This document shows positions 21,963 to 57,892 of a DNA stretch of 64,000 nucleotides, in pieces. Location: assembly GCA_973895155.1 (NCBI GenBank), contig OZ316897.1:23349455-23413454 (forward strand). The letters run 5' to 3'. The translations under genes and the position numbers were made by a program. This stretch comes from Marsupella aquatica. Its lineage: Eukaryota; Plantae; Marchantiophyta. The first letter of the stretch is position 1. The number at the start of each line of letters is the position of its first letter. Under the pieces are notes generated by a model that was not told where the DNA came from, did not search any database, and saw only the letters and a program-made list of their open reading frames with translations.

Positions 21963-21984
21963 AAATCAAATAATAATACACTTT

Positions 21985-24900: not shown

Positions 24901-25827
24901 TCAGGCGGCTCTGGCAAGCGTGCCAGGCATTAGCGGCGGAGTAGGATTAGAGTAGAGTTAGGAATAGCTCAATTAGGCTATAGGGACAAGCAACTGCCCT
25001 AGTTAGCGCAGCACTGCCATGCTGTACAACCTGCGTAGATTAGGATATTTTAATAAGATAAGTCGTTTTCCGGCCTGACAGCCAGCTTAGTTAGGCCCTT
25101 AGCTAGCGAATCTTCGGGCGCAAGGGCACTCCGTTCCTTGGCCCTTAGTATTTAGTGCACCCCTCGGTAGAGGCGGGGGGGATTTTTAGTCTCAGTGTTG
25201 GACATCCGCGGTATGTGCGGGGAGTCCCAACCTCTGGGAGTGAAAGAGTACCAAGGGGAGGGTGTAGGACTAAGCTCGCTGGGCGAGTGCGGAGCCGGGC
25301 TCCGTTGTAGTGTACACCCTTGGCCTTGGACCTGTTCATTCCAGGGCTTTCGGGTCAACTAAGTGTACGCATATGTCTCCTATGTAGTAAAATCCTTTCC
25401 CACTATTTCCTTCGTGTAAATCGAGGTTGTATGCTTGTGCGTATGTATATGTGTGAATCTCGTGTATAGGTGCCAACGCTTGGCCGAACGCACTACCCAA
25501 GTTGTGCACGGGGTGCAGCTTGCGGGTAAGTGGTTGCGAGCCCGGGTTTAGTACCCATACCATCAAATCCGGATCGAAGGCGGACAACACAAAGGCTTAG
25601 AAGCCCGTAAGCCGGGGTCAATCCTGCTATTGACTGAGGTACGTTCCGGCGGTGGAACACAAATCATACCTAGGAGGTGTCCGTATATGACCATAGGCGC
25701 ACTTAGCGCTAGTTTACGTAAGTTAGGTGCATTCCGTGCATCCCTCCCTGCCCGAACCCTCATTTTGACGAAGGATGTGCCTGTCTAAGCCGAAGCCCGG
25801 GTTAAGGCCTAGGCTGACGACGTGACA
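21985..25827 (+). mobile_element. Family B LTR copy B1 (5'-truncated or interrupted), ORF-bearing
   Basis: Colinear with 46620-50500 and ends GACGTGACA. The first about 120 bp of the LTR are absent, no matching TSD is seen, and no PBS follows. Confidence 0.85.
22342..24933 (+). pseudogene. LTR-encoded ORF of family B (B1), several stops/frameshifts
   Basis: Fragments 22411, 22748, 23339, 24115, 24442 and 24733 align to 46972..49607. TATAAAA at 22235-22241 lies upstream. Confidence 0.8.
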
Positions 25828-27965: not shown

Positions 27966-30900
27966 TGTGGTGCGTCCCATGGCTCCCTAAACCCAAGAAA
28001 CCCCCCAGCTCAAGCCGATTCCCGCAGGTTTCGTGCTTGGCGAGGCCGTTTCCGCGGCTTAGCGGCATGGGACGCTGCTAACCTTCTACTACTACTATTA
28101 ACATTTTACACACATATACTGGACAGATCCTTCATCGGGTCATGAGATACGTAGCCGGCCTAATATAGGCCTTCCCCTGTCTTCCCCTGTCTTCCCCTCC
28201 GTCTTGTTAGGTATGTTTGGATTCCGCCGCCGGAATGATCCCCAATAGGCTTGGTTAAGCCGCTAAGACCTCTCTCAGCTCGACACATCCAACTCTCACT
28301 CCCCTGCTTACTTTCCTTCCTTCTGTTGATGTGGGCACTCTTCACACAAGTTAATGCGACACACAAATAGCAAAATGACTCATTCTGACTGAGTCATACC
28401 ATGCACTTGCCATACAAACAGTACATCTCATACACAAGTTCTGCGAACTAAGCCGTGAGGCCAACTCTATTAAGCTCTTAGGCATGAGGAAACATGAATA
28501 TACACAAGGATCACTGTATGACTAACCGAGAGCTTCTCGTACTACTTGATCCCAACCCGGCTGGTGCAAACTAAAAACTTGCTAAAGAAGAGGCCCTGAG
28601 CTCCCCGCTGCCCAGGTACTTATCCTGGTAGTGGATCCGCCATTCTTTGCATCGTAAGCCTAATCTACTTAACAGTAATCTACTTGCCCGAATCTACCTA
28701 TGTACAGCAAGGCAGGAGCACAAGTGTTGCTCCTACCAGTGGGACCGCAATCCCACTAAGCTAAGTGTCAGGGCCGCTCCTGGTTCTGATCCTAATCCTA
28801 AACGTGGAGATCCGCGCCCGCCCTGCCCACTCACGCCTCCTCCCTCCACGTCCGCCCTCCCTAAAAGGAACGGCGCCCTTGCACCGTCACGACACCGGTG
28901 GTGGATCCTTAATGGATGCCCCCAACGCTTCCTCCTCAACCACTACCGTAGGTTCATTCTCTGACAGATTACCTGCCCTTGACTGAGTCAACTCTCCATC
29001 GGCCTGACTGGGTCCACCTTCGGCTTCAGCCTCGACACCGGCCTCGGCAATACCCACGGCTTCGGCCTCAGCCACTCCCACGGCTTCGGCTTCAGCCACT
29101 CCCTTGGCTTCGGCCTCCCCTTCCCCTAGGGTAGTTGGATCCTTAGCCGTGACCCTGTCTGGGGTCGGTGTTGGGTCTACCTCCTTGATCACCACGGCCT
29201 GTGAAGTCGTATTACTCCTTGACCCTGAAGGTTTCCGCTTCTTCTTCGTTGGTGGCTCGGCAGCTGGTCCCTTCCCCTTCCCACTTACTTCCGGCACTGG
29301 TGCAGTTGGCGCGGCTTGTCCTTCGGCAATTACCACCCCTGGTAACTGGTTTGTCCCAACGGGAGATGGACCTGCTGCAGCTAAGCATTTAAATACTGCG
29401 GCTTGTTTCTTCAGCCGCTCTGTTTGGTTGTCGGCCCGCCGCTGTAGGTTCTCCATCTTCCTCGTGATTTCCTCCAACTCCTCTTGGGTTTCATCCAGGT
29501 CCTTACGTGCCCCCTCCAGCTCGTTTTTGGCCTCCTCCTGCTCCCTGTGGGCTTCCTCCAATTCCTTCTTCAAGGTAGCCCTCTCCTCCTGGGTTGCTCT
29601 TAGCTCCTTGTCGAGCTCTGCAATGATGACAGACTCCATCTGGTTCATCTTGGCGTAAGTCTGTTCGAGCATCTCGTCCTTCTCCCTTAGGTCGGCCTTG
29701 AAGTTGGCCGTCAGGGACGCAAGCTCCTGCTGCAGCGCCATAATCCCTTGATAGGATTTCCCTAACTCGACCTCCTTCTGCTCAAGGGCTCCGCGGATTT
29801 TCTTGAGCTCCCCTTTCAAGGCCCATTCCTTTCTTTGGGTCTCCGCCATGGCCCGGCTGTTGGCTGTTATGTGGGCCTCCTCTGTATTCTTCAGCTCTTG
29901 CTTCCACTTCTCCCTCTCTTTGATCGTGTCGGCCAACTCTCCCTGCGTCTGAGTTAGTTTATCCTTGATATTCTGATTATCAGCCTGCGCGGTGTCCAAC
30001 TGCCCCTGCGCTCATGTCGTTTAATCCGCAGTTCATCTTGGGCTTTCTTGGCCGCCCTTAGATCTTCAATCTCGGCTTCCATCCTCCTAAGCCGCTGAAT
30101 GACCTCGTCCTTCTTGCTTCTCTCTAAAGCCACCGCTTCTTCTAATTGGTGCTTCTCCAACTGCTCCCTATGGAAAAAGGATCCTACCTCCAACTCCTCT
30201 CCAAAGATGCCGAGCGCAAGTTCCCCACACATCTCACCATACTCCATGGCTCTATTCTTAGCGTAGGTGGAGTAAGTAGAAGTGATCGGCATCGCCCATC
30301 GTGGCCTCTGCTCCCAAGCCGTCCTGCGGATCTCTTCAATCGTGGCTAGAGGTTTGCTTCCTTTTTCGGCTAGCCGCCTGATGTCCTCCGGCCAATCTCC
30401 TCCTGGTAAATCCTTTTCCTTAGCCAGGGCGGCCTCTTCCTCCTGCTTGATTCGCTCCTGAAATTCCTGCACCGTCTGTTTTATGCCGTCGAAGCTCGGG
30501 GGAGCAACATCTGGTGGGGGAGACTCAGGGCTACTCTGCTGGTTGGGGTCCCCTCGCACTACCCTTGGAAGTGTGGGGACAAACCGGCCACAGGTCCTTA
30601 CTCCTGGAACGTGATGGTCCGACCCATAGCCGGAATTATCATGGCTGCAGTCCTCCACTGCCTCCTCTACCTCTTGGACGTCCGGCTTCTCCCTCTCCTC
30701 TTCGTCGGTAGGAGCTTCAGGCAATTCTGCCTCAGATTCGGAGCTTGAGGTTCCCACGTACATTCGAACACCTGGCTTGGATTCCGGCCTGATTCTCTCC
30801 TTGTCTCTAGCAAAGGGGTTTTCTCTTGTGAGCCGGTGTAGGCCTACCTCTGTAGTAGTGTCCTGCATTGTTGCCGTTGCCGTTGTTGTTGCCGATGCCG

Positions 30901-32615
30901 ATTTCTTTTCTTTCTCCAGTAGTTTCAGCAGACTCTGCATGCCTGGTTGCTGCATCGGCAAGTCTTCCTTCCTGGGCCTAAACACCTGCTCGATCGTAGG
31001 ACTAACAGGTGGTTGAGGCTTCTCAGCCAACGGCCTCGGCGTTGGAGCTTCCTCGGGTGCCCTTACCTGCAGGGGAAGTACCGGGGCAAAAGTCTGACCT
31101 CTGGCATACCGGCACAACAGCGGCATGTGATAGCCCAGCCGCGACACGCTCCCCATGCCGATTACCTGCTGCTCCTCCTTTAAGATCTTCTTCAATTGGT
31201 TGAGGAGGTACCCGTTGTAGTCCCGGCTTGGGTCTGGCCTTTCTGCCAGATAGACCTGTGCCTTGCCGATCTCTGCCCTCGGCAAGTTACAATGCATGGT
31301 CACCCGCAAGAAGTCGATCATCTCTTCTATGTGCGGGTTGGTGCAGGTGTTCCGGAAGAAGCCATTCTTCGTTGATGGCCCGGGGAACGACCGGAACTCC
31401 TTGTCAGGCAAGGTCTTCCTGGTATCAACTTTGGTCTTATTGCCTATCGGCAGGCCAAACACTTCGGCAATTACCTTGGGAGTAAGATAGAAATCCTTCC
31501 CATATATCCTCGTGCAATTGGTCTCGGGTTCCCATGACCCCACGAATTCTAATAGGTCTGACTCCGGTACCTCCGGCTTCAGCCATGGTAATCTTACAAA
31601 GGCCTCCAAGCCGGATCCGGCCATGAAGCCTTGGTACTTCTTGGTCTGCATGGCCGTAAAGCATGCATCCTCCTCCCGTGCAAAATGTAGTTGCACCTCC
31701 ACCGGTAGGGTTGCCGCCCAGCCCTTCCAGGTGTCATCCCTGGTTGGAATGGCCTTGATGGGATCGACCTCCTCCTCTTCGGCTTCTCCCTGCCTCCTGC
31801 TCTGCTGCTCGGCTGGCCTCTTTGGTGCCGCCGACCTCGTTCTTTTTGCCGGGGTGGCTTCATCGTTGACGGCCCCCTTCCTCTTCATCTCTGCTGCCGT
31901 GGAGGTTTCTCCTAGCACCGTTGCCTGGGTCCACCTTTCCGTGCTACCCTTTAATTCCCAGTGTATGTCGTTGCAGTTCTTGATGGCCTCTCGGATGCCG
32001 ACGACGCTGTCTTTGCAAAATAGAAGATCGTCGAGTTGATTGGAAGTAGGCGTCCACAGGAACTCGTCCTTGATGAGTTCGCCTCCTAAGAAAGCCGTCT
32101 TCTGTAGCTCCCACAATCGAGCGAGCTCCTGCCGTTCTCGAGCTGCCCTTTCTGACTCCTCGTCCTCGTAAGTCTTGATGTACTCAGTTGCCCGTTCGAA
32201 CAGGCATCCCCAGAAATGTGCCGCTTGATTGACGTTGCTCATACCCTCCTTAGGTCGATCGTCGGTATCTACTCTCTCCCCGAGTGCTTGCCTAAGCAGC
32301 TGACAGTAGTTGGCCTCCCGTAGTCGTCTGCCTAGTTCGTGCTCGCAAATGAGCCACCATCTCCTGCAAGCGCTCCTTACCCCTCTCCTCTGCCGGTCCT
32401 TCTTCCCGTTGATCCTTCCTAGCCGCCGACGCTTAACGCGCCCTAACCCTAATCGGGTTTTCACCCTCAGCCTTACCTCCGGCCTCTGCCCGGGTTCCAT
32501 GGTTGCCCCTAATTGTTTATATTTTCCTTGTTTTGTCCCTATACTAAGGTGTTCCTAGGGTGCCTTCCTGCTTTACCCACTTAACCGGCCGAGTGATTCC
32601 TGTCTAGGCATCACA
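27966..32615 (-). repeat. A2 3' LTR (4650 bp)
   Basis: TG...CA termini, adjacent to the PPT; near-identical to the other A LTRs. Confidence 0.95.
28887..32500 (-). pseudogene. LTR-encoded ORF (A2 3' LTR), one frameshift
   Basis: ORFs 29954..32500 and 28887..29999 are split by a 10-bp deletion near 30010. Confidence 0.85.
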
Positions 32616-37886: not shown

Positions 37887-40800
37887 TGTGGTGCGTCCCA
37901 TGGCTCCCTAAACCCAAGAAACCCCCCAGCTCAAGCCGATTCCCGCAGGTTTCGTGCTTGGCGAGGCCATTTCCGCGGCTTAGCGGCATGGGACGCTGCT
38001 AACCTTCTACTACTACTATTAACATTTTACACACATATACTGGACAGATCCTTCATCGGGTCATGAGATACGTAGCCGGCCTAATATAGGCCTTCCCCTG
38101 TCTTCCCCTGTCTTCCCCTCCGTCTTGTTAGGTATGTTTGGATTCCGCCGCCGGAATGATCCCCAATAGGCTTGGTTAAGCCGCTAAGACCTCTCTCAGC
38201 TCGACACATCCAACTCTCACTCCCCTGCTTACTTTCCTTCCTTCTGTTGATGTGGGCACTCTTCACACAAGTTAATGCGACACACAAATAGCAAAATGAC
38301 TCATTCTGACTGAGTCATACCATGCACTTGCCATACAAACAGTACATCTCATACACAAGTTCTGCGAACTAAGCCGTGAGGCCAACTCTATTCAGCTCTT
38401 AGGCATGAGGAAACATGAATATACACAAGGGTCACTGTATGACTAACCGAGAGCTTCTCGTACTACTTGATCCCAGCCCGGCTGGTGCAAACTAAAAACT
38501 TGCTAAAGAAGAGGCCCTGAGCTCCCCGCTGCCCAGGTACTTATCCTGGTAGTGGATCCGCCATTCTTTGCATCGTAAGCCTAATCTACTTAACAGTAAT
38601 CTACTTGCCCGAATCTACCTATGTACAGCAAGGCAGGAGCACAAGTGTTGCTCCTACCAGTGGGACCGCAATCCCACTAAGCTAAGTGTCAGGGCCGCTC
38701 CTGGTTCTGATCCTAATCCTAAACGTGGAGATCCGCGCCCGCCCTGCCCACTCACGCCTCCTCCCTCCACGTCCGCCCTCCCTAAAAGGAACGGCGCCCT
38801 TGCACCGTCACGACACCGGTGGTGGATCCTTAATGGACGCCCCCAATGCTTCCTCCTCAGCCACTGCCGTAGGTTCATTCTCTGACAGATTACCTGCCCT
38901 TGACTGAGTCAACTCTCCATCGGCCTGACTGGGTCCACCTTCGGCTTCAGCCTCGACACCGGCCTCGGCAATACCCACGGCTTCGGCCTCAGCCACTCCC
39001 ACGGCTTCGGCTTCAGCCACTCCCTCGGCTTCGGCCTCCCCTTCCCCTAGGGTAGTTGGATCCTTAGCCGTGACCCTGTCTGGGGTCGGTGCTGGGTCTA
39101 CCTCCTTGATCACCACGGCCTGTGAAGTCGTATTACTCCTTGACCCTAAAGGTTTCCGCTTCTTCTTCGTTGGTGGCTCGGCAGCTGGTCCCTTCCCCTT
39201 CCCACTTACTTCCGGCACTGGTGCAGTTGGCGCGGCTTGTCCTTCGGCAATTACCACCCCTGGTAACTGGTTTGTCCCAACGGGAGATGGACCTGCTGCA
39301 GCTAAGCATTTAAATACTGCGGCTTGTTTCTTCAGCCGCTCTGTTTGGTTGTCGGCCCGCCGCTGTAGGTTCTCCATCTTCCTCGTGATTTCCTCCAACT
39401 CCTCTTGGGTTTCATCTAGGTCCTTACGTGCCCCCTCCAGCTCGTTTTTGGCCTCCTCCTGCTCCCTGTGGGCTTCCTCCAATTCCTTCTTCAAGGTAGC
39501 CCTCTCCTCCTGGGTTGCTCTTAGCTCCTTGTCGAGCTCTGCAATGATGACAGACTCCATCTGGTTCATCTTGGCGTAAGTCTGTTCGAGCATCTCGTCC
39601 TTCTCCCTTAGGTCGGCCTTGAAGCTGGCCGTCAAGGACGCAAGCTCCTGCTGCAGCGCCATAATCCCTTGATAGGATTTCCCTAACTCGACCTCCTTCT
39701 GCTCAAGGGCTCCGCGGATTTTCTCGAGCTCCCCTTTCAACGCCCATTCCTTTCTTTGGGTCTCCGCCATGGCCCGGCTGTTGGCTGTTATGTGGGCCTC
39801 CTCTGTATTCTTCAGCTCTTGCTTCCACTTCTCCCTCTCTTTGATCGTGTCGGCCAACTCTCCCTGCGTCTGAGTTAGTTTATCCTTGATATTCTGATTA
39901 TCAGCCTACGCGGTGTCCAACTGCCCCTGCATGATGTTCAGCTCATGTCGTTTAATCCGCAGTTCATCTTGGGCTTTCTTGGCCGCCCTTAGATCTTCAA
40001 TCTCGGCTTCCATCCTCCTAAGCCGCCGAATGACCTCGTCCTTCTTGCTTCTCTCTAAAGCCACCGCTTCTTCTAATTGGTGCTTCTCCAACTGCTCCCT
40101 ATGGAAAAAGGGTCCTACCTCCAACTCCTCTCCAAAGATGCCGAGCGCAAGTTCCCCACACATCTCACCATACTCCATGGCTCTATTCTTAGCGTAGGTG
40201 GAGTAAGTAGAAGTGATCGGCATCGCCCATCGTGGCCTCTGCTCCCAAGCCGTCCTGCGGATCTCTTCAATCGTGGCTAGAGGTTTGCTTCCTTTTTCGG
40301 CTAGCCGCCTGATGTCCTCCGGCCAATCTCCTCCTGGTAAATCCTTTTCCTTAGCCAGGGCGGCCTCTTCCTCCTGCTTGATTCGCTCCTGAAATTCCTG
40401 CACCGTCTGTTTTATGCCGTCGAAGCTCGGGGGAGCAACATCTGGTGGGGGAGACTCAGGGCTACTCTGCTGGTTGGGGTCCCCTCGCACTACCCTTGGA
40501 AGTGTGGGGACAAACCCGCCACAGGTCCTTACTCCTGGAACGTGATGGTCCGACCCATAGCCGGAATTATCATGGCTGCAGTCCTCCACTGCCTCCTCTA
40601 CCTCTTGGACGTCCGGCTTCTCCCTCTCCTCTTCGTCGGTAGGAGCTTCAGGCAATTCTGCCTCAGATTCGGAGCTTGAGGTTCCCACGTACATTCGAAC
40701 ACCTGGCTTGGATTCCGGCCTGATTCTCTCCTTGTCTCTAGCAAAGGGGTTTTCTCTTGTGAGCCGGTGTAGGCCTACCTCTGTAGTAGTGTCCTGCATT

Positions 40801-42550
40801 GTTGCCATTGCCGTTGTTGTTGCCGATGCCGATTTCTTTTCTTTCTCCAGTAGTTTCAGCAGACTCTGCATGCCTGGTTGCTGCATCGGCAAGTCTTCCT
40901 TCCTGGGCCTAAACACCTGCTCGATCGTAGGACTAACAGGTGGTTGAGGCTTCTCAGCCAACGGCCTCGGCGTTGGAGCTTCCTCGGGTGCCCTTACCTG
41001 CAGGGGAAGTACCGGGGCAAAAGTCTGACCTCTGGCATACCGGCACAACAGCGGCATGTGATAGCCAAGCCGCGACACGCTCCCCATGCCGATTACCTGC
41101 TGCTCCTCCTTTAAGATCTTCTTCAATTGGTTGAGGAGGTACCCGTTGTAGTCCCGGCTTGGGTCTGGCCTTTCTGCCAGATAGACCTGTGCCTTGCCGA
41201 TCTCTGCCCTCGGCAAGTTACAATGCATGGTCACCCGCAAGAAGTCGATCATCTCTCCTATGTGCGGGTTGGTGCAGGTGTTCCGGAAGAAGCCATTCTT
41301 CGTTGATGGTCCGGGGAACGACCGGAACTCCTTGTTAGCTAGGCAGGGTCTTCCTAGTATCAACTTTGGTCTTATTGCCTATCGGCAAGCCAAACACTTC
41401 GGCAATTACCTTGGGAGTAAGATAGAAATCCTTCCCATATATCCTCGTGCAATTGGTCTCGGGTTCCCATGACCCCACGAATTCTAATAGGTCTGACTCC
41501 GGTACCTCCGGCTTCAGCCATGGTAATCTTACAAAGGCCTCCAAGCCGGATCCGACCATGAAGCCTTGGTACTTCTTGGTCTGCATGGCCGTAAAGCATG
41601 CATCCTCCTCCCGTGCAAAATGTAGTTGCACCTCCACCGGTAGGGTTGCCGCCCAGCCCTTCCAGGTGTCATCCCTGGTTGGAATGGCCTTGATGGGATC
41701 GACCTCCTCCTCTTCGGCTTCTCCCTGCCTCCTGCTCTGCTGCTCGGCTGGCCTCTTTGGTGCCGCCGACCTCGTTCTTTTTGTCGGGGTGGCTTCATCG
41801 TTGACGGCCCCCTTCCTCTTCATCTCTGCTGCCATGGAGGTTTCTCCTAGCACCGTTGCCTGGGTCCACCTTTCCGTGCTACCCTTTAATTCCCAGTGTA
41901 TGTCGTTGCAGTTCTTGATGGCCTCTCGGATGCCGACGACGCTGTCTTTGCAAAACAGAAGATCATCGAGTTGATTGGAAGTAGGCGTCCACAGGAACTC
42001 GTCCTTGATGAGTTCGCCTCCTAAGAAAGCCGTCTTCTGCAGCTCCCACAATCGAGCGAGCTCCTGCCGTTCTCGAGCTGCCCTTTCTGACTCCTCGTCC
42101 TCGTAAGTCTTGATGTACTCAGTTGCCCGTTCGAACAGGCATCCCCAGAAATGTGCCGCTTGATTGACGTTGCTCATACCCTCCTTAGGTCGATCGTCGG
42201 TATCTACTCTCTCCCCGAGTGCTTGCCTAAGCAGCTGACAGTAGTTGGCCTCCCGTAGTCGTCTGCCTAGTTCGTGCTCGCAAATGAGCCACCATCTCCT
42301 GCAAGCGCTCCTTACCCCTCTCCTCTGCCGGTCCTTCTTCCCGTTGATCCTTCCTAGCCGCCGACGCTTAACGCGCCCTAACCCTAATCAGGTTTTCACC
42401 CTCAGCCTTACCTCCGGCCTCTGCCCGGGTTCCATGGTTGCCCCTAATTGTTTATATTTTCCTTGTTTTGTCCCTATACTAAGGTGTTCCTAGGGTGCCT
42501 TCCTGCTTTACCCACTTAACCGGCCGAGTGATTCCTGTCTAGGCATCACA
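37887..42550 (-). repeat. A2 5' LTR (4664 bp)
   Basis: Adjacent to the PBS and TSD; TG...CA termini. Confidence 0.95.
38808..42435 (-). pseudogene. LTR-encoded ORF (A2 5' LTR), two stops and a 4-bp insertion
   Basis: Stops at 42388-42390 and 39906-39908, insertion near 41336-41340; otherwise matches the consensus. Confidence 0.85.
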
Positions 42551-43690: not shown

Positions 43691-43703
43691 GGTTTAGGGT
43701 TTA
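43676..43703 (+). repeat. Interstitial telomeric repeat (GGGTTTA)4
   Basis: Four perfect plant-type units. Confidence 0.9.
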
Positions 43704-44561
43704 CAACTTCATGTTGACAAAATCTGATACATTGTACAAAAAGACAGTAGATCAAATCAAAATCCGATTGACTGAATTTTTGGCAGAAGAGAAAGAGCAA
43801 GAACAAGAGAATGGATCAGCTAGAACCCCACTAGGAGATAAATCTAGGATATTTCGTTTCAAGAATTGAGGACTTATGGATCTGAGTAATGAAAAGTAGT
43901 TATTGTTTGTGACATTACCATTGAAAAACATGGATAAGTTGAAAATTTTCAATTTTTCAAATTGCCTTTACCACTTATTCATGAATTCATGGTTAAAGTT
44001 TCTTGAGAAATTTTTAGTTTAATATTTTCTTAGTGGGTTGTGTTTCAATTCAATTAGATGGTGTCATTTCTATCCTCCTTGTCTTCTTTTCACAATAATG
44101 TGTATCAGGCTAAGTTGTAGTAGTTTATTTTCTGGTTTTTAAATGACAATGGCTTTTGGAGGTGATTTAGTTATCGGTTCAAGAGACAGCTCGTGTAATT
44201 GTGAGACCATTGTAGATAATAGTGTTGCATTTGAGGTCATTTATTGGTGGAATGTATTTTCAGATGAATTTGGTCATTTTTAGGCTGTCAAAACATAGCT
44301 AGTTTATGTCATATTTTGTTCGCTTCATATTTTTGTTCTAAAATAGGTGCTTTTTCTGACTTTTTCGTTGTTTTTCTGATTTTTTGGCTAGAGTTCCTAA
44401 AGTATGGGCTTGTTACTCATCATTTAAGGCTTCTTGTTTCCTTTGTATTTTCATGGCGGGACGGTCTTTTTCGGGCACTCGTGGCAAAAAGACCACGAAA
44501 AAGACCACAAAGACCGGGCATTGCGATTGCTAGGCTGCATAAAAATGTATATAATCCCTTA

Positions 44562-44592
44562 AAACCCTAACCCTAAACCCTAAACCCTAAAC
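44562..44592 (-). repeat. Interstitial telomeric repeat (CCCTAAA)n with one CCCTAA unit
   Basis: AAACCCTAACCCTAAACCCTAAACCCTAAAC, at the truncation point of the copia fragment. Confidence 0.88.
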
Positions 44593-45910: not shown

Positions 45911-46068
45911 TGTGGGTGTCCAAAGATTAAAGGGAATTTGTGATTCTCAATTGAATGATCACTGTATGAGATACGGTAAAATGGGAAAGTCACTTATCTT
46001 TTGTAATTTGCGCCTGCACCTTTCTTGTTTCCTTGTCCCAGAGTTATTATTGGTGTGACGCCGCCGGT

Positions 46069-46537
46069 CGAGTTTGAAGTACACACTCCATGGGTCAGCA
46101 TTCGGGATCGCTTGCCCGAACCTGAAAGTTTGTCAGACCGAGCTTATCAGATTGAAGCCTTAGAAGAGGCACGGCTACTAGCATCTCGACACGCCGTAAA
46201 CCAGCAAGCAACTTCTAAGAAGCAGCATGACAAAGGACTACAGAAGGTCAATGTCGTGACAGGCGACCTGGTCCTTCTGTATGATAGTAGGTACATGCAG
46301 TTTCCAGGGAAGCTTCATACCCATTGGTTAGGGCCCTTCCTAGTCAATCAGATCTACCCTAACGGATCTTTGGAGCTTGCGACGTACGCCGGTGATTTAC
46401 TCCCCACGCGAGTCAGTTACAAGCGTGTAAAGAAGTACCACCATCAAGACGACGACGCCGAAAGTGATGTTCGCGAGGACGCTTCACAGTTAAGCAGGGA
46501 GCTATGTGATGCCGCCAGTACGGCGAGTAATGAGTAA
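46069..46537 (+). pseudogene. Integrase C-terminal fragment of family B
   Basis: ALEEARL...GDLVLLYDSRY..FPGKLHTHWLGPF...VREDASQLSRELCDA, homologous to the family A pol end. Confidence 0.9.
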
Positions 46538-49500
46538 TTCAGTCTAAACCGTGCTTAGCACGCACGTTAGGGGTATCTTAGGCCGCTATTATTAGCATAA
46601 CGATAGTATTTAGGTAACCATTATGAGTAGGAAATCATTAGTCAATAAGGGGAATTCATGTTCGGACTGGCGGCGTGTCGCCATTCACACGCCCGGGTTG
46701 CGAGCATGGAGGGGCCCCTCCCTCGAGTCCGTATAACAAACTTAGGGAAGCGGCCACTGACACGCGCTGACTTAGACCGGCAGAGTGGCCGGTACACTAC
46801 AAGCGTGAACGGTTCAGCCTATAAGCAACGAGGAGACGTCGGGTGATCGACGAGCCCTCAAGGTATAAAAAGGGGGCTGACCCTTTGTAGTGCACCAGTC
46901 CATCAGTCCACACGCCAGCTTCAACCCCAGCCCTCTCGTTCTCTCGTAGTCGCCACTGCTATCTCCTCTGAATGTCGCACATGATCCTCTCCATTTTGGC
47001 CATTCGATTCTGGACGCAGTTCCTATCTGCCGGAAGACACTTGGCCGACTCATTGAAACACGCCAACCCGCGCCGATACAAAATCAAACGCGAGTATGAG
47101 AGAGCCATCCGCCTAGCAGGACAACACCACTATATCCTTAACTTTGACTACCCGTCTCAGAGCGAGCTTAACCGACCAGCAGAGGTATCTGGGTACTTCT
47201 TCAACGGAGACAAATATATCAGTTTTTGGGAAGCATTGCTTCGGCTTCCGGACGAGGTCTTCAATATCCCGGGTATGATCGACTTGCAACGGCATCACTT
47301 TGACCACATCCCTGCTCAGGTTCGGGCTATCATCAACAGCGAGTCCAACACTACCCGTTCGACAAGGCCGTCTGCACTTGCTTCGGAGAACTTCTACCAG
47401 CACCCGTAGAGCTTCATGGGGACTAGACCCTCAACCGCCGGCGCCGGCCCAGTCGACCCCATACCCGTACCCGCACCAACGCAGACTCAGGCTCAGCTTC
47501 AGTCTCAGCCTCAGCCTAGCCAACCCACACTGCCGATCGCCCCGCTAGTACAAGTACGCTCTGTCATCAACGCTGTGGACCTTAGCGACGACGACGAGGC
47601 TACCCCACCCTTGCTTAGGCGGCCCAGAGGAGCAAACACTCAAGGGGCGAACACTACATTGTCCCCTCCCCATGTCCGGACCCAAGGAGCGGCTCCAGCA
47701 GACAACACGGTGACCGTGGCCACCCCGAGCCCAATACTAATGGCGGTAGCACTACCTATGGCCGATCGAGAGGATGGGGAGGTGTCACCCTCCCCGAGCC
47801 AGTCACGGGGGAAGAAGAGGAAGGAACCCACTGCTGCATCCGGGTTACCAATGGCCACGGTAGCTGCGGCCAAGGTGACAATGCACCGCATGGGGGAAAA
47901 CATGCATAAAAACATCCTCCATCCCAAGCATGCGGTGTACCTAAAAACTCAGGGATTCGAGCACCTTGCCTCTCTCCCCTGGAACACTTGCAGGTACTAC
48001 GGGGAGGACATGAAGGAATTCATCAAGAATTATGATGACGCACATCAACATACTCGGCTGCGGGGAAGGAATATGTCCCTTACAGAAGAACGGCTCAAGA
48101 TGATCTTTGGGTTACCCGAAGGTGACCACCGAGTTGAATCACGGGCTCCCGGGGGCAAGGGAGCCAAGTACCAATCCTCGAGTTTTCCCTCCGAGGGATC
48201 AATGGACAACGGGTTCATGATGAGGACCTGCCTCATCCCCGAGATAGCTAAGCGACTGGAGTTCCAAAGGTACGCCCTCCACATGATGGAACCCCGTGGG
48301 GAGATCTCCGCTGCCCAGATTATCCAGGTCGAGAACTATCAACCTAGGAAGTGGGCGTCGTACTTCGCTAAGAAATTCCATGAAGAGATGGAGCGGCGAA
48401 GAAAGACGCTATACATTGGCGGGAAGGCGTATTTCGTTAGCCACATCGAGATCATTCTTGAGTGGTACGCTCGGTTTGATCGACAAACCCTTCCCCGTGT
48501 CAACGTAACAAAGCTGGTCCCAGCTAGGTGGGTTTTCCCGGCCTTGGAGAGACAGCCCCAACCCGAGGCCCAAAGTCCAGCGGCCACGCAGGCTTCACCC
48601 ACCCCACCTCCACAAGTAGCTGTAGCCGTGGCCACGGAGGTACCGGATGGGTCGGTAATCGCAACTGTAGATGCGATCAACCAGGCCGGGCCAAGTACAG
48701 AAGTCGGGACAGCCGAGGCCTTACTCAAGCCCGGGTCTCCCAAAGACCCACCGGTGGCTATTTCGGAGGACCGGACATTGTTGGAGGAGGACACTCCAAC
48801 CCCTTCCAACACTACGTCCCCAGGGCTGGATGTCACTGCCCTGGCCCCCGCGCGTGTTGACGTCTGCCCGTGCCCAACTCTGGACAGGCACAACCTGGAC
48901 CACCCGGAACTCTTCATACCGGGTACATTTCTGAACGGGCTTCTGGGAGATTTCTCTCATCAAATTGCCCGGGATATCGGGGAGTTCATGGCCCGGAAGG
49001 TAGCCTGTTTCTTCAATCAGGAGTTGGTTGCCGCAGTAAAGGCAGGTCGGGCCCAGTCAGAGGCCCTTCAGAGGATAGAGCGGTACCGGGTGGAGTCCGT
49101 ATACTTAAAGAACAAAGTTGTGGCTCAAGAGGCTGAGCTTCTGCAACTACGACCCAAAGTTGCAGCCACCGATGAGTTGTTAGCAAAGGCGCACACCCAT
49201 ACCGCCCTAGCCGAACAGGCCAAAGCTGGGAACGAGGCCGAGATTGCACGACTCCGGAACCAGATTGACAGTTTGAAGAATCAAACTGTCATCTGGCAGA
49301 AAGACCTGGAGGAGGCCAAAGAACGGGCCCAGCGGGACACTGCGGAGATAGCCACGCTACAGGCCAAAGTAGCGCGGCTCCAAACTGAAGCCGAGAAGCA
49401 AGACCAGTTGGCGGGCAAGCTGACGAGCGACGCCCAATAGCTGGAGGAGGCATGCCAGGAGGCAGCGGAGGAGACGGATGCGCAAAGCGAGAGAACAAAT

Positions 49501-50500
49501 CTCTGCTAGACCAGGTCCAACTCCTCAAGGCGGACAACGACAGACTTTGTAAGCAGCGGGATGGCCGCTCCCACTCGGGCGGCTTTGGCAAGCAAGCCAG
49601 GCATTAGCGGCGGAGTAGGAATAGTATAGGGTTAGGAATAGCTAAATCAGGGTATGGGGACAGGAACCTGCCCTAGTTAGAGCAGCACCGCCATGCTATC
49701 CAGCCTGCGTAGGTTAGGATCTTCTAATAAGACACAACTGTTTTTCGGCCTGACAGTCAGATTAGTTAGGACCTAAGTCAGCGAATCTTCGGGCGGGAGG
49801 ACACTCCGTTCCTCGGCCCTTAGTATTTGGTGCACCCCTCGGTAGAGGCAGGGGGTTTTAGTCTTAGTATTGGACGTCCACGGTATGTGCGAGGAGTCCC
49901 GACCTCTGGGAGTGAAAGAGTACCAAGGGGAGGGTGTAAGACTAAGCTCGTTGGGCGAGTGCGGAGCCGGGCTCCGTTGTAGTGTACACCCTCGGCCTCG
50001 GACCTGTTCACTCCAGAGCATTCGGGTCAACTAAGTGTACTCGTATGTCTCTTATGGAGTAAAATCCCTTCCCGTTATTTCCTTCATGTAAATCAAGATT
50101 TTATGCTTGTGCGTATGTATGTGTGTGAATCTCGTGTATAGGTGCCAACGCTTGGCCGAACGCACTACCCAAGTAGTGCACGGGGTGCATCTTGCGTGTA
50201 CGTGGTTGCGACCCCGGGTTGAGCACCCATATCATCAAAATCTGGATCGAAGGCGGACAATACGAAGGCTTAGAAGCCCTTAAACCGGGGTCGATCCTGC
50301 TATCGATTGAGGTACGTTCCGGCGGTGGAACACAAATCATACCTAGGAGGTGTCCGTATATGACGATAGGCGCACTTAGCGCTATTTTACGTAAGTTGGG
50401 TGCATTCCGTGCCTCCCTCCCTGCCCGAACCCTCATTTTGACAAAGGATGTGCCTGTTTAAGCCGAAGCCCGAAGTAAGGCCAAGGCTGATGACGTGACA
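46505..50500 (+). repeat. Family B LTR (3996 bp)
   Basis: TGTGATGCC directly after PPT AAGCAGGGAGCTA; ends CA at the TSD; homologous to 21985-25827. Confidence 0.9.
46972..49607 (+). pseudogene. LTR-encoded ORF of family B (B2), about 870 codons, two TAG stops and a late frameshift
   Basis: In-frame ORFs 46972..47409 and 47416..49440. TATAAAA at 46864-46870. The central domain aligns with the family A LTR ORF; C-terminal coiled coil. Confidence 0.85.
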
Positions 50501-52299
50501 ATTGGGTAGACATTTCTCGCTCAGCTGTTTGTAGTAGCATTCAATGCTGTCCGGATTTGAGGATTGGCTGCCTTGGATGTGCTCGGGGAGATTGCTCGGA
50601 TGTTCAATTGTATCCTTGAATAAAGTTATGGAGATTGGTGAAATTGGTTGGCAATATCATTAGGCGTTGAACGTTTGGTGGGATGGAATCGCTTATGTGG
50701 GAAATGGACTAATTTGCAATCCAAATCTCATGCCAATTTTTGACAGAAAATTTACAGAGATCTGTGTATAATTTTGTAAGGAGACCCCTCCACATCTAAT
50801 TCTCACTTCTAAAGGAAAAAATTGAATGTAAGGAGAAACCTCCACATCTAATTTTGGGTCATTGTAGCGTGCAAGGAAACAGTATAAAATTTCCTCGCAC
50901 GGGATCATTTTCTCCTTGGAATACCCAAAATTTGGCACAAAAACAACCTCGCTAGCATAAAGGACTCTCGCTAGCCTAAAAGGAACCTTCTATTCCACCT
51001 ATTTATTTAACTCCCGTTGGGTTTAAAAAGCAATCCCGACTATGCATTGGTACATATTACGTATTCCCCGGACACAAACGGTCATCGACGGCACCATAAT
51101 ACAATATATAATTCCAACGTACATCAGGCCAGCGAAGTTGCTAGCCATAACTCTGCCCATCATTCTCGCACAAAATACTCCGTGCGGTCATGACCCACAC
51201 AAAAAGCACTCATTAGAAAGCATGGGTGTAAACGATTGCAGCAACAGCACTACACCGGATCATATCACGACAGAATCCAATGTCCCCTTCCTCATGAGTG
51301 AAGTGTGAAATGCGAAACCATTTCAGAGGATCCAAAGCTCCCAAAATGCACTATATGTCATTCGGACCTCTCGACTCATCTCCATTCCTAACAGTGTTCT
51401 CATTATTTGACTTTCATCGTCTCCTCACTCTTTTGCGATCGTCTTCGCATCGCAAGGTAACTTCAATCGAGCTTGTGTTGTCATATTTGCAGGCGAGGAG
51501 GGGATCTGGTGTTCTTGGGTGTGTCGCATTCTCGCAAAGTTTTTGTCGCACAAGGAGATGTAAGTTGGATACCGGGAGACCTCTTCACAGCAAGTAGCAT
51601 TATTGTTAATGAGAAAGTCTGGTTTTCCCAGTTCTATTTTCCTTCTCGTAGTTTTGCGCATTTTGACTCGATGAGCTTGGATGTTTTGAAGGTGACTGTT
51701 TCTATTTGGTAAACACATGTTGAGAAAGTAATCTGATACACAACAGCGTTTGTTACAGACAGAAATGGCAAAGGACGATGACTCTTCCGCTCCAAAACCC
51801 AAATGGGTTCTAGAGGTCCGCCGCTACAATGTCGAAACTGACAGCCCAGTGGACTCGCCACCAAGCTCTCCTCCGGCAAGGAAGAGTGTACCCCCTCTGC
51901 TCAAGACTGGATCATCATCCAGTCGGGTCCCGCCTATTGTATGTGCTTCAACTCAGCGACCTGCACCGCCAAAGGAAACAACTTCAAACGTTGTTTCCAG
52001 AGCACCAATGTTTTTCTCGCACAAACGTATCCGTTTCTAAGATAGTTTCAGAGAAGCGGAAGAGAGAGGAGGAGGAGTCTTACTAGAGGGACATTGACAT
52101 ACACAACTACTGGACATCCGACATCCTAGCTTTGTCTGATTATGATACGGATTCGGACACAGATTCAGACGCCTACAAGGTAGCATCTCCATGAATAGTA
52201 CCCTAGACGACAATCACTCCGCGTTTTGAACCCCCGTAGTTTTACAGTTAATCTCTGTCAAGTCCGTGACCTTACAATGAAATGATTGGTAGGACACGG

Positions 52300-53256: not shown

Positions 53257-56200
53257 TGTGATGCCTAGACAGGAATCACTCGGCCGGTTAAGTGGGTAAA
53301 GCAGGAAGGCACCCTAGGAACACCTTAGTATAGGGACAAAACAAGGAAAATATAAACAATTAGGGACAACCATGGAACCCGGCCAGAGGCCGGAGGTAAG
53401 GCTGAGGGTGAAAACCCGATTAGGGTTAGGGCGCGTTAAGCGTCGGCGGCTAGGAAGGATCAACGGGAAGAAGGACCGGCAGAGGAGAGGGGTAAGGAGC
53501 GCTTGCAGGAGATGGTGGCTCATTTGCGAGCACGAACTAGGCAGACGACTACGGGAGGCCAACTACTGTCAGCTGCTTAGGCAAGCACTCGGGGAGAGAA
53601 TAGATACCGACGATCGACCTAAGGAGGGTATGAGCAACGTCAATCAAGCGGCACATTTCTGGGGATGCCTGTTCGAACGGGCAACTGAGTACATCAAGAC
53701 TTACGAGGACGAGGAGTCAGAAAGGGCAGCTCGAGAACGGCAGGAGCTCGCTCGATTGTGGGAGCTGCAGAAGACGGCTTTCTTAGGAGGCGAACTCATC
53801 AAGGACGAGTTCCTGTGGACGCCTACTTCCAATCAACTCGACGATCTTTTGTTTTGCAAAGACAGCGTCGTCGGCATCCGAGAGGCCATCAAGAACTGCA
53901 ACGACATACACTGGGAATTAAAGGGTAGCACGGAAAGGTGGACCCAGGCAACGGTGCTAGGAGAAACCTCCACGGCAGCAGAGATGAAGAGGAAGGGGGC
54001 CGTCAACGATGAAGCCACCCCGGCAAAAAGAACGAGGTCGGCGGCACCAAAGAGGCCAGCCGAGCAGCAGAGCAGGAGGCAGGGAGAAGCCGAAGAGGAG
54101 GAGGTCGATCCCATCAAGGCCATTCCAACCAGGGATGACACCTGGAAGGGCTGGGCGGCAACCCTACCGGTGGAGGTGCAACTACATTTTGCACGGGAGG
54201 AGGATGCATGCTTTACGGCCATGCAGACCAAGAAGTACCAAGGCTTCATGGCCGGATCCGGCTTGGAGGCCTTTGTAAGATTACCATGGCTGAAGCCGGA
54301 GGTACCGGAGTCAGACCTATTAGAATTCATGGGGTCATGGGAACCCGAGACCAATTGCACGAGGATATATGGGAAGGATTTCTATCTTACTCCCAAGGTA
54401 ATTGCCGAAGTGTTTGGCTTGCCGATAGGCAATAAGACCAAAGTTGATACCAGGAAGACCTTGCCTGACAAGGAGTTCCGGTCGTTCCCCGGGCCATCAA
54501 CGAAGAATGGCTTCTTCCGGAACACTTGCACCAACCCGCACATAGGAGAGATGATCGACTTCTTGCGGGTGACCATGCATTGTAACTTGCCGAGGGCAGA
54601 GATCGGCAAGGCACAGGTCTATCTGGCAGAAAGGCCAGACCCAAGCCGGGACTACAACGGGTACCTCCTCAACCAATTGAAGAAGATCTTAAAGGAGGAG
54701 CAGCAGGTAATCGGCATGGGGAGCGTGTCGCGGCTTGGCTATCACATGCCGCTGTTGTGCCGGTATGCCAGAGGTCAGACTTTTGCCCCGGTACTTCCCC
54801 TGCAGGTAAGGGCACCCGAGGAAGCTCCAACGCCGAGGCCGTTGGCTGAGAAGCCTCAACCACCTGTTAGTCCTACGATCGAGCAGGTGTTTAGGCCCAG
54901 GAAGGAAGACTTGCCGATGCAGCAACCAGGCATGCAGAGTCTGCTGAAACTACTGGAGAAAGAAAAGAAATTGGCATCGGCAACAACAACGGCAACGGCA
55001 ACAATGCAGGACACTACTACAGAGGTAGGCCTACACCGGCTCACAAGAGAAAACCCCTTTGCTGGAGACAAGGAGAGAATCAGGCCGGAATCCAAGCCAG
55101 GTGTTCGAATGTACGTGGGAACCTCAAGCTCCAAATCTGAGGCAGAATTGCCTGAAGCTCCTACCGACGAAGAGGAGAGGGAGAAGCCGGACGTCCAAGA
55201 GGTAGAGGAGGCAGTGGAGGACTGCAGCCATGATAATTCCGGCTATGGGTCGGACCATCACGTTCCAGGAGTAAGGACCTGTGGCCGGTTTGTCCCCACA
55301 CTTCCAAGGGTAGTGCGAGGGGACCCCAACCAGCAGAGTAGCCCTGAGTCTCCCCCACCAGATGTTGCTCCCCCGAGCTTCGACGGCATAAAACAGACGG
55401 TGCAGGAATTTCAGGAGCGAATCAAGCAGGAGGAGGAGGCCGCCCTGGCTAAGGAAAAGGATTTACCAGGAGGAGATTGGCCGGAGGACATCAGGCGGCT
55501 AGCCGAAAAAGGAAGCAAACCTCTAGCCACGATTGAAGAGATCCGCAGGACGGCTTGGGAGCAGAGGCCACGATGGGCGATGCCGATCACTTCTACTTAC
55601 TCCACCTACGCTAAGAATAGAGCCATGGAGTATGGTGAGATGTGTGGGGAACTTGCGCTCGGCATCTTTGGAGAGGAGTTGGAGGTAGGACCCTTTTTCC
55701 ATAGGGAGCAGTTGGAGAAGCACCAATTAGAAGAAGCGGTGGCTTTAGAGAGAAGCAAGAAGGACGAGGTCATTCGGCGGCTTAGGAGGATGGAAGCCGA
55801 GATTGAAGATCTAAGGGCGGCCAAGAAAGCCCAAGATGAACTGCGGATTAAACGACATGAGCTGAACATCATGCAGGGGCAGTTGGACACCGCGCAGGCT
55901 GATAATCAGAATATCAAGGATAAACTGACTCAGACGCAGGAAGAGTTGGCCGACACGATCAAAGAGAGGGAGAAGTGGAAGCAAGAGCTGAAGAATACAG
56001 AGGAGGCCCACATAACAGCCAACAGCCGGGCCATGGCGGAGACCCAAAGAAAGGAATGGGCGTTGAAAGGGGAGCTCGAGAAAATCCGCGGAGCCCTTGA
56101 GCAGAAGGAGGTCGAGTTAGGGAAATCCTATCAAGGGATTATGGCGCTGTAGCAGGAGCTTGCGTCCCTGACGGCCAGCTTCAAGGCCGACCTAAGGGAG

Positions 56201-57892
56201 AAGGACGAGATGCTCGAACAGACTTACGCCAAGATGAACCAGATGGAGTCTGTCATCATTGCAGAGCTCGACAAGGAGCTAAGAGCAACCCAGGAGGAGA
56301 GGGCTACCTTGAAGAAGGAATTGGAGGAAGCCCACAGGGAGCAGGAGGAGGCCAAAAATGAGCTGGAGGGGGCACGTAAGGACCTGGATGAAACCCAAGA
56401 GGAGTTGGAGGAAATCACGAGGAAGATGGAGAACCTACAGCGGCGGGCCGACAACCAAACAGAGCGGCTGAAGAAACAAGCCGCAGTATTTAAATGCTTA
56501 GCTGCAGCAGGTCCATCTCCCGTTGGGACAAACCAGTTACCAGGGGTGGTAATTGCCGAAGGACAAGCCGCGCCACCTGCACCAGTGCCGGAAGTAAGTG
56601 GGAAGGGGAAGGGACCAGCTGCCGAGCCACCAACGAAGAAGAAGCGGAAACCTTTAGGGTCAAGGAGTAATACGACTTCACAGGCCGTGGTGATCAAGGA
56701 GCTAGACCCAGCACCGACCCCAGACAGGGTCACGGCTAGGGATCCAACTACCCTAGGGGAAGGGGAGGCCGAAGCCGAGGGAGTGGCTGAGGCCGAAGCC
56801 GTGGGTATTGCCGAGGCCGGTGTCGAGGCTGAAGCCGAAGGTGGACCCAGTCAGGCCGATGGAGAGTTGACTCAGTCAAGGGCAGGTAATCTGTCAGAGA
56901 ATGAACCTACGGCAGTGGCTGAGGAGGAAGCGTTGGGGGCGTCCATTAAGGATCCACCACCGGTGTCGTGACGGTGCAAGGGCGCCGTTCCTTTTAGGGA
57001 GGGCGGACGTGGAGGGAGGAGGCGTGAGTGGGCAGGGCGGGCGCGGATCTCCACGTTTAGGATTAGGATCAGAACCAGGAGCGGCCCTGACACTTAGCTT
57101 AGTGGGATTGCGGTCCCACTGGTAGGAGCAACACTTGTGCTCCTGCCTTGCTGTACATAGGTAGATTCGGGCAAGTAGATTACTGTTAAGTAGATTAGGC
57201 TTACGATGCAAAGAATGGCGGATCCACTACCAGGATAAGTACCTGGGCAGCGGGGAGCTCAAGGCCTCTTCTTTAGCAAGTTTTTAGTTTGCACCAGCCG
57301 GGCTGGGATCAAGTAGTACGAGAAGCTCTCGGTTAGTCATACAGTGACCCTTGTGTATATTCATGTTTCCTCATGCCTAAGAGCTGAATAGAGTTGGCCT
57401 CACGGCTTAGTTCACAGAACTTGTGTATGAGATGTACTGTTTGTATGGCAAGTGCATGGTATGACTCAGTCAGAATGAGTCATTTTGCTATTTGTGTGTC
57501 ACATTAACTTGTGTGAAGAGTGCCCACATCAACAGAAGGAAGGAAAGTAAGCAGGGGAGTGAGAGTTGGATGTGTCGAGCTGAGAGAGGTCTTAGCGGCT
57601 TAACCAAGCCTATTGGGGATCATTCCGGCGGCGGAATCCAAACATACCTAACAAGACGGAGGGGAAGACAGGGGAAGACAGGGGAAGGCCTATATTAGGC
57701 CGGCTACGTATCTCATGACCCGATGAAGGATCTGTCCAGTATATGTGTGTAAAATGTTAATAATAGTAGTAGAAGGTTAGCAGCGTCCCATGCCGCTAAG
57801 CCATGAAAACAGCCTCGCCAAGCACGAAACCTGCGGGAATCGGCTTGAGCTGGGGGGTTTCTTGGGTTTAGGGAGCCATGGGACGCACCACA
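53257..57892 (+). repeat. A3 5' LTR (4636 bp)
   Basis: TGTGATGCC...CACCACA followed by the PBS. Confidence 0.95.
53372..56971 (+). pseudogene. LTR-encoded ORF (A3 5' LTR), single CAG>TAG stop
   Basis: 926 aa open, TAG at 56150-56152, in-frame continuation to 56971; lacks one 24-bp AEAEAVGV repeat. Confidence 0.87.

Follow-up and report, generated by a model that had tools for sequence, protein, structure and literature searches.

We found that Ty3/gypsy retrotransposons of the liverwort Marsupella aquatica carry a conserved accessory gene wholly within their 4.0-4.7 kb LTRs, in two families, A and B, of a 64-kb window (the whole stretch of DNA analysed; coordinates count from its first letter). 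The LTR limits, the position of the gene, purifying selection on it, the homology of two of its domains between the families and its decay in family B are directly established. The protein is predicted to have a VANC21-like core, a coiled-coil tail and basic NLS-like motifs, and to be without a transmembrane segment. Because of this predicted fold, we think it somewhat more probable than otherwise that the protein binds DNA of its own element, sustains its transcription and so keeps the element active.

The family A copies are:
14934..19593, minus strand: A1 5' LTR, 4660 bp (element TSD CTTGT)
15855..19220, minus strand: intact homologous accessory ORF of 1121 aa, inside the A1 5' LTR
4043..8710, minus strand: A1 3' LTR, gene frameshifted
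27966..32615, minus strand: A2 3' LTR, gene frameshifted (element TSD ACAGG)
37887..42550, minus strand: A2 5' LTR, gene frameshifted and also interrupted by a stop
53257..57892, plus strand: A3 5' LTR with a single stop in its gene; PBS and gag-pol come next

Family A displays the hallmarks of Ty3/gypsy elements: a TG...CA LTR pair with 5-bp TSDs, gag, the RT-RNaseH-integrase order and a PBS as well as a polypurine tract (PPT). A1 and A2 are TSD-bounded with 4.65-kb TG...CA repeats; the PBS lies 3 nt 3' of the 5' LTR, the PPT adjoins the LTR, gag starts 70 nt past the LTR end and the pol stop codon falls within the LTR. The Pfam order is zf-CCHC, RVT_1, RT_RNaseH, Integrase_H2C2 and rve; in the A3 pol, part of which lies beyond the window, Pfam profiles, none of them aRH-specific, detected a single RNase H region, the Tat clade being marked by an additional archaeal-type RNase H (aRH). 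The accessory gene is broken in four of the five young copies, the sole intact one being that in the 5' LTR of A1, a two-LTR element.

Family B is represented by the following segments:
46049..46053, plus strand: B2 left TSD ATTGG, 5 bp, same as 50501-50505
46054..46065, plus strand: remnant of the B2 5' LTR start, 12 nt, at a deletion junction; 11/12 identical to LTR positions 1-12 at 46505
46066..46504, plus strand: B2 integrase C-terminal tail to the PPT; aligns to the family A integrase at 48% identity (131 aa, E=1e-47)
46505..50500, plus strand: family B LTR, copy B2 (3' LTR), 3996 bp, TG...CA
50501..50505, plus strand: B2 right TSD ATTGG, matching the left TSD
21981..25827, plus strand: B1, the other copy of the family B LTR, truncated at its 5' end; gene disrupted by 5 stops and by frameshifts

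The B2 LTR begins with TGTGATGCC at 46505, directly 3' of a PPT that overlaps the integrase end (a 46-nt junction that shares 93% identity with family A), and the integrase reading frame extends into the LTR. It ends with ...GTGACA at 50500, an ending shared by B1 at 25827. In contigs from public runs, the match stops at 50500 in four of four runs with heterogeneous loose ends (agreement 0.52-0.62), where the matches listed include no PBS; contigs of runs X2-X4 join the B2 left flank straight to 50501, giving the empty site. B2 (46054-50500 within its ATTGG TSDs) is a dead, internally deleted element, in which a deletion fused the first 12 nt of the 5' LTR to the integrase tail. It is no solo LTR: 451 nt of LTR remnant, integrase and PPT separate the left TSD from the LTR. 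In B1 the 5' end of the LTR, some 115-125 nt, is lost, and no PBS was found 3' of the LTR end. The original prediction had described both copies as LTR-only remnants, which fails for B2, with ~440 nt of integrase retained inside its TSDs, and is not confirmed for the truncated B1. Of the family B internal region, the integrase tail and PPT alone are seen in the window, and no full-length B element was found within its 64 kb.

The family B gene lies wholly within the 4.0-kb LTR, as laid out in B2:
46864..46871, plus strand: TATA box candidate, TATAAAAA, at LTR position 360, 108 nt upstream of the start codon
46972..49607, plus strand: accessory gene of ~878 codons, now a pseudogene (stops at 47407 and 49438; 1 nt lost near 49482)
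46972..47340, plus strand: N-terminal domain, ~115 aa, no known family; dN/dS 0.155
47863..48480, plus strand: core domain, ~205 aa, predicted VANC21-like fold; dN/dS 0.067
48841..49607, plus strand: C-terminal helical, coiled-coil-like region; weak Pfam coiled-coil match; dN/dS 0.174
49608..50500, plus strand: 3' non-coding part of the LTR; candidate region for polyadenylation and for the promoter of the genomic RNA

The gene was under purifying selection, since dN/dS between B1 and B2 is 0.17 (95% CI 0.13-0.21; 801 codons) and 0.07 in the core; shifted frames, used as a control, gave 1.2 and 1.9. The 3' non-coding part (49608..50500) is conserved far above synonymous sites, with a B1/B2 distance of 0.11 against a dS of ~1.1. 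Both family B genes are dead: that of B1 has five in-frame stops plus frameshifts, and the lesions of the two copies are private stops, for the most part transitions, as decay after insertion is expected to look. Thus, of the proposal that both copies keep a TATA box and an ORF, the TATA candidate stood in B1 and B2, and the ORF, broken by stops and frameshifts in both, did not. The further proposal that the LTR gene is old and under selection is supported by the dN/dS of 0.17, by A/B identity down to 27% and by relatives in other liverworts.

The LTRs of the two families were said to be unalignable as DNA, and one 40-nt motif is indeed the sole stretch that aligns. At the protein level, the cores share 27% identity over 185 aa (E=8e-18), with a pairwise score of 181 against a shuffle maximum of 47 (0/1000 shuffles as high); this significant alignment supports the core homology first noticed by eye. 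A coiled-coil-like C-terminus in both families was likewise recovered, by weak Pfam coiled-coil matches and an A/B score of 78 that none of 300 shuffles reached, a control that is weak for coiled coils. The N-terminal match quoted in the original prediction is at chance level (E=2.8; 226/1000 shuffles as good), and its register was discarded, the quoted A segment sitting upstream of the conserved start. With family A left out of the profile, Met1 of B instead aligned with the second Met of A, which is codon 87 in the open frame, scoring 10.7 bits where the best of 1000 shuffles scored 4.8. By this profile alignment the N-terminal domain is common to A and B in another register, so that the proposed common architecture holds for the core, the coiled-coil-like region and the N-domain and breaks down at the quoted N-terminal register. 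We did not accept the first ATG in the A frame, at LTR position 116, as the start codon, since it follows the TATA-like site by 21 nt and is without an equivalent in the relatives, and since two of the five copies carry stops between it and the conserved Met.

A profile search recovered 75 relatives at E<=0.001. Organism names were obtained for 13 of the 30 looked up, and 12 of these 13 are liverwort proteins. The N-domain is present in 11 of 99 fetched proteins, and together with the core in 8 of the 99; it had no match in Pfam and returned unrelated bacterial leads only in the ESM Atlas. None of the 75 relatives reached the Pfam curated cut-off for Transposase_32, ATHILA ORF1 or PMD, and four matched PF20167 below it (17-32 bits against 45; best E 1.6e-7). 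When compared by hhalign with a 4-sequence group around the two best PF20167 matches, the core profile aligned over 164 columns (96.8%, E 2.7e-10); this is a bridge and no independent test, because the PF20167-like group was found with the core's own profile. None of the 57 members of alignment A4 attained the DUF1985, PMD, ATHILA or Transposase_32 cut-off, and DUF1985 is absent from the matches of the window proteins and from the 25 families listed for those members. P0060 of Orobanche, which has a DUF1985 match, was dropped as a relative at E 1e3 with the deeper profile. For the core, the ESM Atlas gave DUF1985, ATHILA, PMD and Transposase_32 (score 0.80) as leads only; word-based protein searches yielded nothing for either the B or the A core and, for the alignment, just two matches that were already known, and no related locus was found in viral_contigs or metagenome_contigs. 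These remote links suggest that the accessory gene belongs, as a distant member, to the PMD/DUF1985/Transposase_32 group of accessory domains found in transposons.

The AF2 model of the core is confident (pLDDT 90.9, pTM 0.87), an earlier fold from a 3-sequence alignment having been discarded at pLDDT 33. Foldseek placed the VANC21-DNA structure 9lnj_A at rank 1 (E 2.4e-3, prob 1.00, TM 0.53, 243 columns), the next match being at E 1.5, and VIA-align recovered VANC21 9lnk_A as the sole chain of 48,161 with Z>=2 (Z 7.7, rmsd 4.5, 212 aligned). The core is thus predicted to have the VANC fold, the match being moderate, with a Z below 8, an E value greater than 0.001 and an identity of 9-10%. A BFVD structure search gave no clear match and a PDB sequence search none. 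Basic residues are conserved at positions R96, R133, R138 and R147, and NLS-like basic motifs are predicted in A (KKKRK) and B (RGKKR). No transmembrane segment was found (maximum hydropathy 1.0 and 1.5), which rules out an envelope-like protein.

As to the layout, the gene most likely lies in U3 with its own TATA promoter close to the LTR start, and the genomic RNA would start within the conserved last few hundred bases of the LTR. Such an arrangement may have arisen by a shift of plus-strand priming to the purine tract at the integrase end, which would have absorbed an Athila-type 3' accessory region into U3. With the whole gene in the LTR, each insertion would carry two copies, and any solo LTR would retain one. 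The sole sense-strand TATA(A/T)(A/T) match of the B LTR, at 46864, is conserved in B1 at 22235, and the best match in family A is at LTR position 95. Near the end of the B LTR no second clear TATA box was found, a result that weakens a layout with two promoters. A sigma-70 promoter scan was set aside as inapplicable to a eukaryote.

A serious possibility, which we still hold to be the less probable, is that there is a single promoter, the TATA box close to the LTR start, which would put the gene in an R region more than 3 kb long; transcripts polyadenylated in the 5' LTR would then be the accessory mRNA, and read-through with splicing would yield the genomic/gag RNA. The position of the only sense TATA in B upstream of the gene (360; best A match at 95) favours it, as do UG-rich stretches 3' of the gene, which are typical of plant 3' ends. 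However, a gag start only 70 nt past the LTR end fits a promoter near that end, family A has TATA-like sites also at 4124 and 4459, and pol continues straight into the LTR, as the absorption of a 3' region would predict.

The proposed role of the protein builds on VANC, which is described as sequence-specific and as demethylating its own element (PMC5735166), as structurally like PMD (10.1101/2024.09.27.615353, PMC13547354) and as dicot-specific (PMC13547354). VANC21 of Arabidopsis VANDAL21 (PDB 9lnj/9lnk) resembles the LTR protein in its predicted core fold (TM 0.53, Z 7.7) and in being a transposon-encoded accessory protein with a conserved domain, variable regions and a coiled coil. In contrast, its host element is a Mutator-like DNA transposon (VANDAL) rather than a gypsy LTR element, identity is 9-10%, and the LTR protein has an extra N-terminal domain and no DUF1985 match. 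VANC21 binds tandem-repeated motifs, whereas no clustered 6-8-mer VANC-type target motifs are enriched in the non-coding LTR parts (~1.3 kb per family). One 5-mer is borderline in the family A non-coding LTR (P=0.02, uncorrected for 8 tests), and the VANC21-target-like TAGTATT, with three copies in B non-coding DNA, was rejected as not above shuffles. Against an anti-silencing role also stand the want of any family cut-off among the 57 A4 members and the fact that a fold alone shows no function, MAIN/MAIL1 of the same fold group acting in silencing (PMC5418596); that four of five young family A copies are already broken weighs against our explanation as a whole. We advance only tentatively the fuller version, that a liverwort gypsy lineage encodes its own VANC-type sequence-specific anti-silencer in its LTR and that a solo LTR would be a self-contained gene reactivating relatives in trans. 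If true, this would be the first VANC-type anti-silencing system in an LTR retrotransposon, and the VANC/PMD anti-silencing fold would reach back to early land-plant retroelements.

It appears rather doubtful that the protein is instead a structural or targeting accessory (a particle component, or a factor in nuclear import or in tethering the integration complex to chromatin) and not a silencing regulator. The long coiled-coil tail, the N-terminal domain without known family and the lack of target-motif clusters are in line with such a role, and Athila-domain and VANC proteins are predicted to form oligomers via coiled coils and to have numerous contacts with the host (PMC13547354). Nevertheless, the sole solved fold match is a DNA-bound anti-silencing factor, and without a transmembrane segment the protein is not envelope-like.

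Very improbable is the original prediction's view of the B remnants as solo LTRs that persist as functional cassettes of promoter and gene and that the host may have retained. Both copies do hold a TATA box and nearly the whole gene region, and the anatomy implies that a solo LTR would keep the whole gene, yet there is no intact example in the window and no demonstrable solo LTR among the B copies. For B1 and B2 this view is already contradicted by the broken genes, whose lesions look like post-insertion decay, by the integrase tail and deletion junction inside the B2 TSDs and by the truncation of B1. LTRs this large are rare (up to ~5 kb; PMC6317226), but the idea that these repeats of 4-4.7 kb are instead duplications, nested elements or artefacts of assembly has next to no probability. 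It is refuted by the perfect 5-bp TSDs that bound the repeats in two independent insertions and by the adjacent PBS and PPT, and the B end confirmed in 4/4 public runs also speaks against it.

Also among the closest known systems are the extra ORFs of Athila/Ogre/Retand (ATHILA ORF1 PF03078, Transposase_32 PF20167, PMD PF10536, Transposase_28 PF04195), which these sources place internally, either ahead of gag or in the stretch from pol to the 3' LTR (PMC6317226, PMC7264820, PMC11963269, PMC11728184). They are likewise conserved accessory ORFs of non-chromovirus-type gypsy elements, commonly with a coiled coil and a predicted nuclear/DNA-binding role, and the LTR gene has its remote profile link to PF20167. 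The present elements differ in having no 3' internal region, with the gene wholly in the LTR, twice per element, and reaching no Pfam cut-off. Accessory genes of this kind are thus described from internal regions, and against these accounts the location inside the LTR is new. The Phygy/Selgy non-chromoviruses of moss and Selaginella (PMC6317226) resemble the present elements, in which Pfam detected no chromodomain or second RNase H and whose polyprotein occupies nearly all of the internal region; unlike the present elements, they are described there as short and without extra ORFs, and Phygy as preferring NCGN insertion sites, whereas none of the three TSDs here (CTTGT, ACAGG, ATTGG) has a central CG.

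What the extra ORFs of plant gypsy elements do is described as unsettled (PMC7264820, PMC11963269), and PMC12844716 leaves unanswered whether any protein encoded by LTR elements influences the methylation of those elements. The intact 1121-aa protein, with its confident predicted VANC21-like core in a young high-identity element, offers a testable candidate. The liverwort branch also bears on the debate over VANC/PMD origin, set out as host capture versus retrotransposon origin (PMC5418596, PMC13547354). Further, the usual arithmetic of LTR decay is altered, because LTR-LTR recombination would not remove the gene, and LTR finders or extra-ORF surveys restricted to internal regions would miss such genes. 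Coding genes in or overlapping the LTR occur in U3 of vertebrate retroviruses, namely MMTV sag, partly HIV nef and foamy-virus bel. These encode much shorter, unrelated proteins, whereas the liverwort gene has 880-1120 codons and fills most of the LTR.

The long repeats of the Ty3/gypsy families A and B are real LTRs. Those of family A measure 4636-4668 bp, start with TGTGATGCC and end in CACCACA, with a purine tract (PPT) immediately upstream of each 3' copy and a PBS-like TGGCGCTAG located 3 nt downstream of each 5' copy. Target-site duplications (TSDs) surround two of the elements, namely CTTGT around A1 and ACAGG around A2. As the family A pol stop codon is located within the LTR, this family has no 3' internal region. 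The two family B copies, B1 (21981-25827) and B2 (46054-50500), share the same terminal base, and the contig matches from all four public sequencing runs stop at 50500 with heterogeneous flanks beyond. The 46-nt junction of the PPT and LTR start at 46468-46513 is 93% identical between B and A, and the integrase tails show 48% amino-acid identity; the junction takes in the end of integrase, the PPT and the LTR start, and the two families are otherwise unalignable as DNA. Within the LTRs, the sole A/B DNA match is a 40-nt motif (80%, E=0.001; 50306-50345 and 57612-57650) with a small hairpin, 150-280 nt upstream of the LTR end.

The LTRs of both families enclose an accessory gene. That of family B starts at 46972, 108 nt downstream of the sole sense TATA match in its LTR, and ends at 49607. 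The original prediction that the A and B proteins share an architecture holds for the core, which aligns with 27% identity over 185 aa (E=8e-18), a score reached by none of 1000 shuffles. In contrast, the N-terminal match as then written is at chance level; the N-terminal domain (N-domain) is, on profile evidence, common to both families in another register. A profile of seven non-A sequences, aligning from its first position to the second Met of A, scored 10.7 bits against a maximum of 4.8 in 1000 shuffles. Together with the LTR limits (TSD, PBS, PPT) and the B1-B2 dN/dS of 0.17 (CI 0.13-0.21; 801 aligned codons), the core alignment bears out a real and conserved LTR-internal gene.

By part, this ratio is 0.155 for the N-domain, 0.067 for the core, where dS is near saturation, and 0.174 for the C-terminal region, compared to 1.2 and 1.9 in shifted-frame controls. 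Neither copy retains the ORF once attributed to both: the frame is broken in B1 by five nonsense codons together with frameshifts, and in B2 by two nonsense codons and the loss of 1 nt, the missing base being present in contigs of all four runs compared (12, 17, 1 and 2 contigs). Each stop lies opposite a sense codon in the other copy. Selection on the gene thus operated while both B lineages were active, with decay following insertion. In family A, the gene is intact from the conserved Met in one of five LTR copies (A1 5', 1121 aa), the remaining four ending at 280-840 aa.

B2 was earlier taken for an LTR-only remnant. A solo LTR is ruled out by its left end, where 12 nt matching the LTR start (11/12) are followed by integrase, all between the ATTGG duplications flanking 46054-50500. 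Contigs from three runs (X2, X3, X4) join its left flank directly to 50501, representing the empty site. B2 is therefore most simply read as a single insertion from which a deletion removed the 5' LTR, gag and the greater part of pol, the alternative being a product of aberrant cDNA. B1 lacks the first ~115-125 nt of the LTR, adjoins a tandem repeat of its host element and shows no PBS downstream of its 3' end; it may be a solo LTR or a 3' LTR. Both being dead copies, B1 and B2 do not demonstrate the proposed solo-LTR promoter-gene cassette.

The B1/B2 distance in the non-coding LTR ends is 0.18 (46630-46971) and 0.11 (49620-50500) versus a gene dS of about 1.1, which might reflect either strong cis-element constraint or subfamily recombination. 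In the A1 3' LTR, a ~750-nt patch at about 4950-5750, within the region encoding the C-terminal part, diverges strongly from the 5' LTR, at 91 of 252 codons. Outside it the two LTRs are over 99% identical, and the A1 TSD is intact; gene conversion from another subfamily is likely. A2 and A3, though separate insertions, share a TGA at gag codon 158 (58433-58435, plus strand; about 37344-37346, minus strand) that is a sense codon in A1, suggesting either that a single defective template was mobilised in trans or that the stop codon is read through.

A three-sequence profile run against 1.84 billion representatives recovered 75 relatives (E<=0.001). Organism look-up for 30 of these gave 10 from Calypogeia fissa, two weak and distant matches from Riccia sorocarpa, one Orobanche minor protein, later rejected as a relative, and 17 without an organism name. 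Since the named relatives are nearly all liverwort proteins, the host is probably a liverwort-type plant. The N-domain and core occur together in 8 of 99 fetched proteins. Some relatives without an organism name (P0006, P0013, P0033, P0048) recur at the same length in more than one contig, so that they may represent copies that are intact or have been domesticated.

The core was modelled with pLDDT 90.9 from 57 aligned sequences, including 54 of 89 fetched proteins picked for coverage. Its top Foldseek PDB match is DNA-bound VANC21, the Arabidopsis VANDAL21 anti-silencing factor (E 2.4e-3, probability 1.00, TM 0.53; runner-up E 1.5). In a Foldseek-independent structure search, VANC21 was the sole chain among 48,161 with Z>=2 (Z 7.7, rmsd 4.5 A, 212 residues). 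The match of the predicted fold is of moderate strength, but it is isolated and domain-wide. None of the 75 relatives reached transposon-family Pfam cut-offs; four weakly matched Transposase_32 (PF20167). Profile comparison bridges the core to a pair of these, along with the proteins clustered with them, at 96.8%; as they had been recovered with a profile from this analysis, the bridge is not independent. The Atlas leads, treated only as such (DUF1985, ATHILA, PMD, Transposase_32), fall in the same group as this bridge. PMD and VANC are described as structurally alike (10.1101/2024.09.27.615353, PMC13547354).

The fold, the conserved basic residues and NLS-like motifs, and the absence of any membrane segment in the protein tip the balance modestly towards a nuclear DNA-binding regulator of its own element, most likely anti-silencing or transactivating. 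Against this reading, no clustered target motif was found in the non-coding LTR parts (about 1.3 kb per family), and relatives by fold such as MAIN/MAIL1 function in silencing (PMC5418596).

Retroviral U3 genes are precedents for an LTR-borne gene. In Athila elements, another purine tract lies downstream of pol. The gene would, in the favoured layout, lie within U3 under its own promoter, since gag starts 70 nt downstream of the LTR and pol extends into it; a giant R region with a single promoter is a less probable arrangement. Extra ORFs of plant gypsy elements are described from internal regions (PMC7264820, PMC6317226, PMC11728184, PMC11963269), and LTRs reach about 5 kb (PMC6317226). The text consulted in these papers and in PMC12885004, PMC1142308, PMC5735166 and PMC12844716 contains no plant gypsy gene lying entirely within an LTR, and exact-phrase searches of an open-access library returned no paper on one, going by titles. 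With its modelled VANC-like core, the gene falls among the known accessory ORFs but differs from those described in its LTR-internal position.

Self-comparison and ORFs show the window to consist of nested transposons: three elements of family A and two repeats of family B, besides host elements that encode DUF7869 proteins (2-4222, 19575-21416, 26001-27590, 42494-43690) and a copia gag fragment. Both A1 and A2 are inserted into DUF7869 ORFs. Tandem repeats of the AAATGTACACTTTT type lie at 21637-21961 and plant telomere-type repeats at about 43676-43700 and 44560-44590. Two further features are:

44590-45946, minus strand: copia-type gag and pol beta-barrel fragment, adjoining the B2 insertion site on the left
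52299-53256, minus strand: end portion (950 nt) of an LTR from an older subfamily of family A, 87% identical

A3 is inserted into the latter in the opposite orientation.
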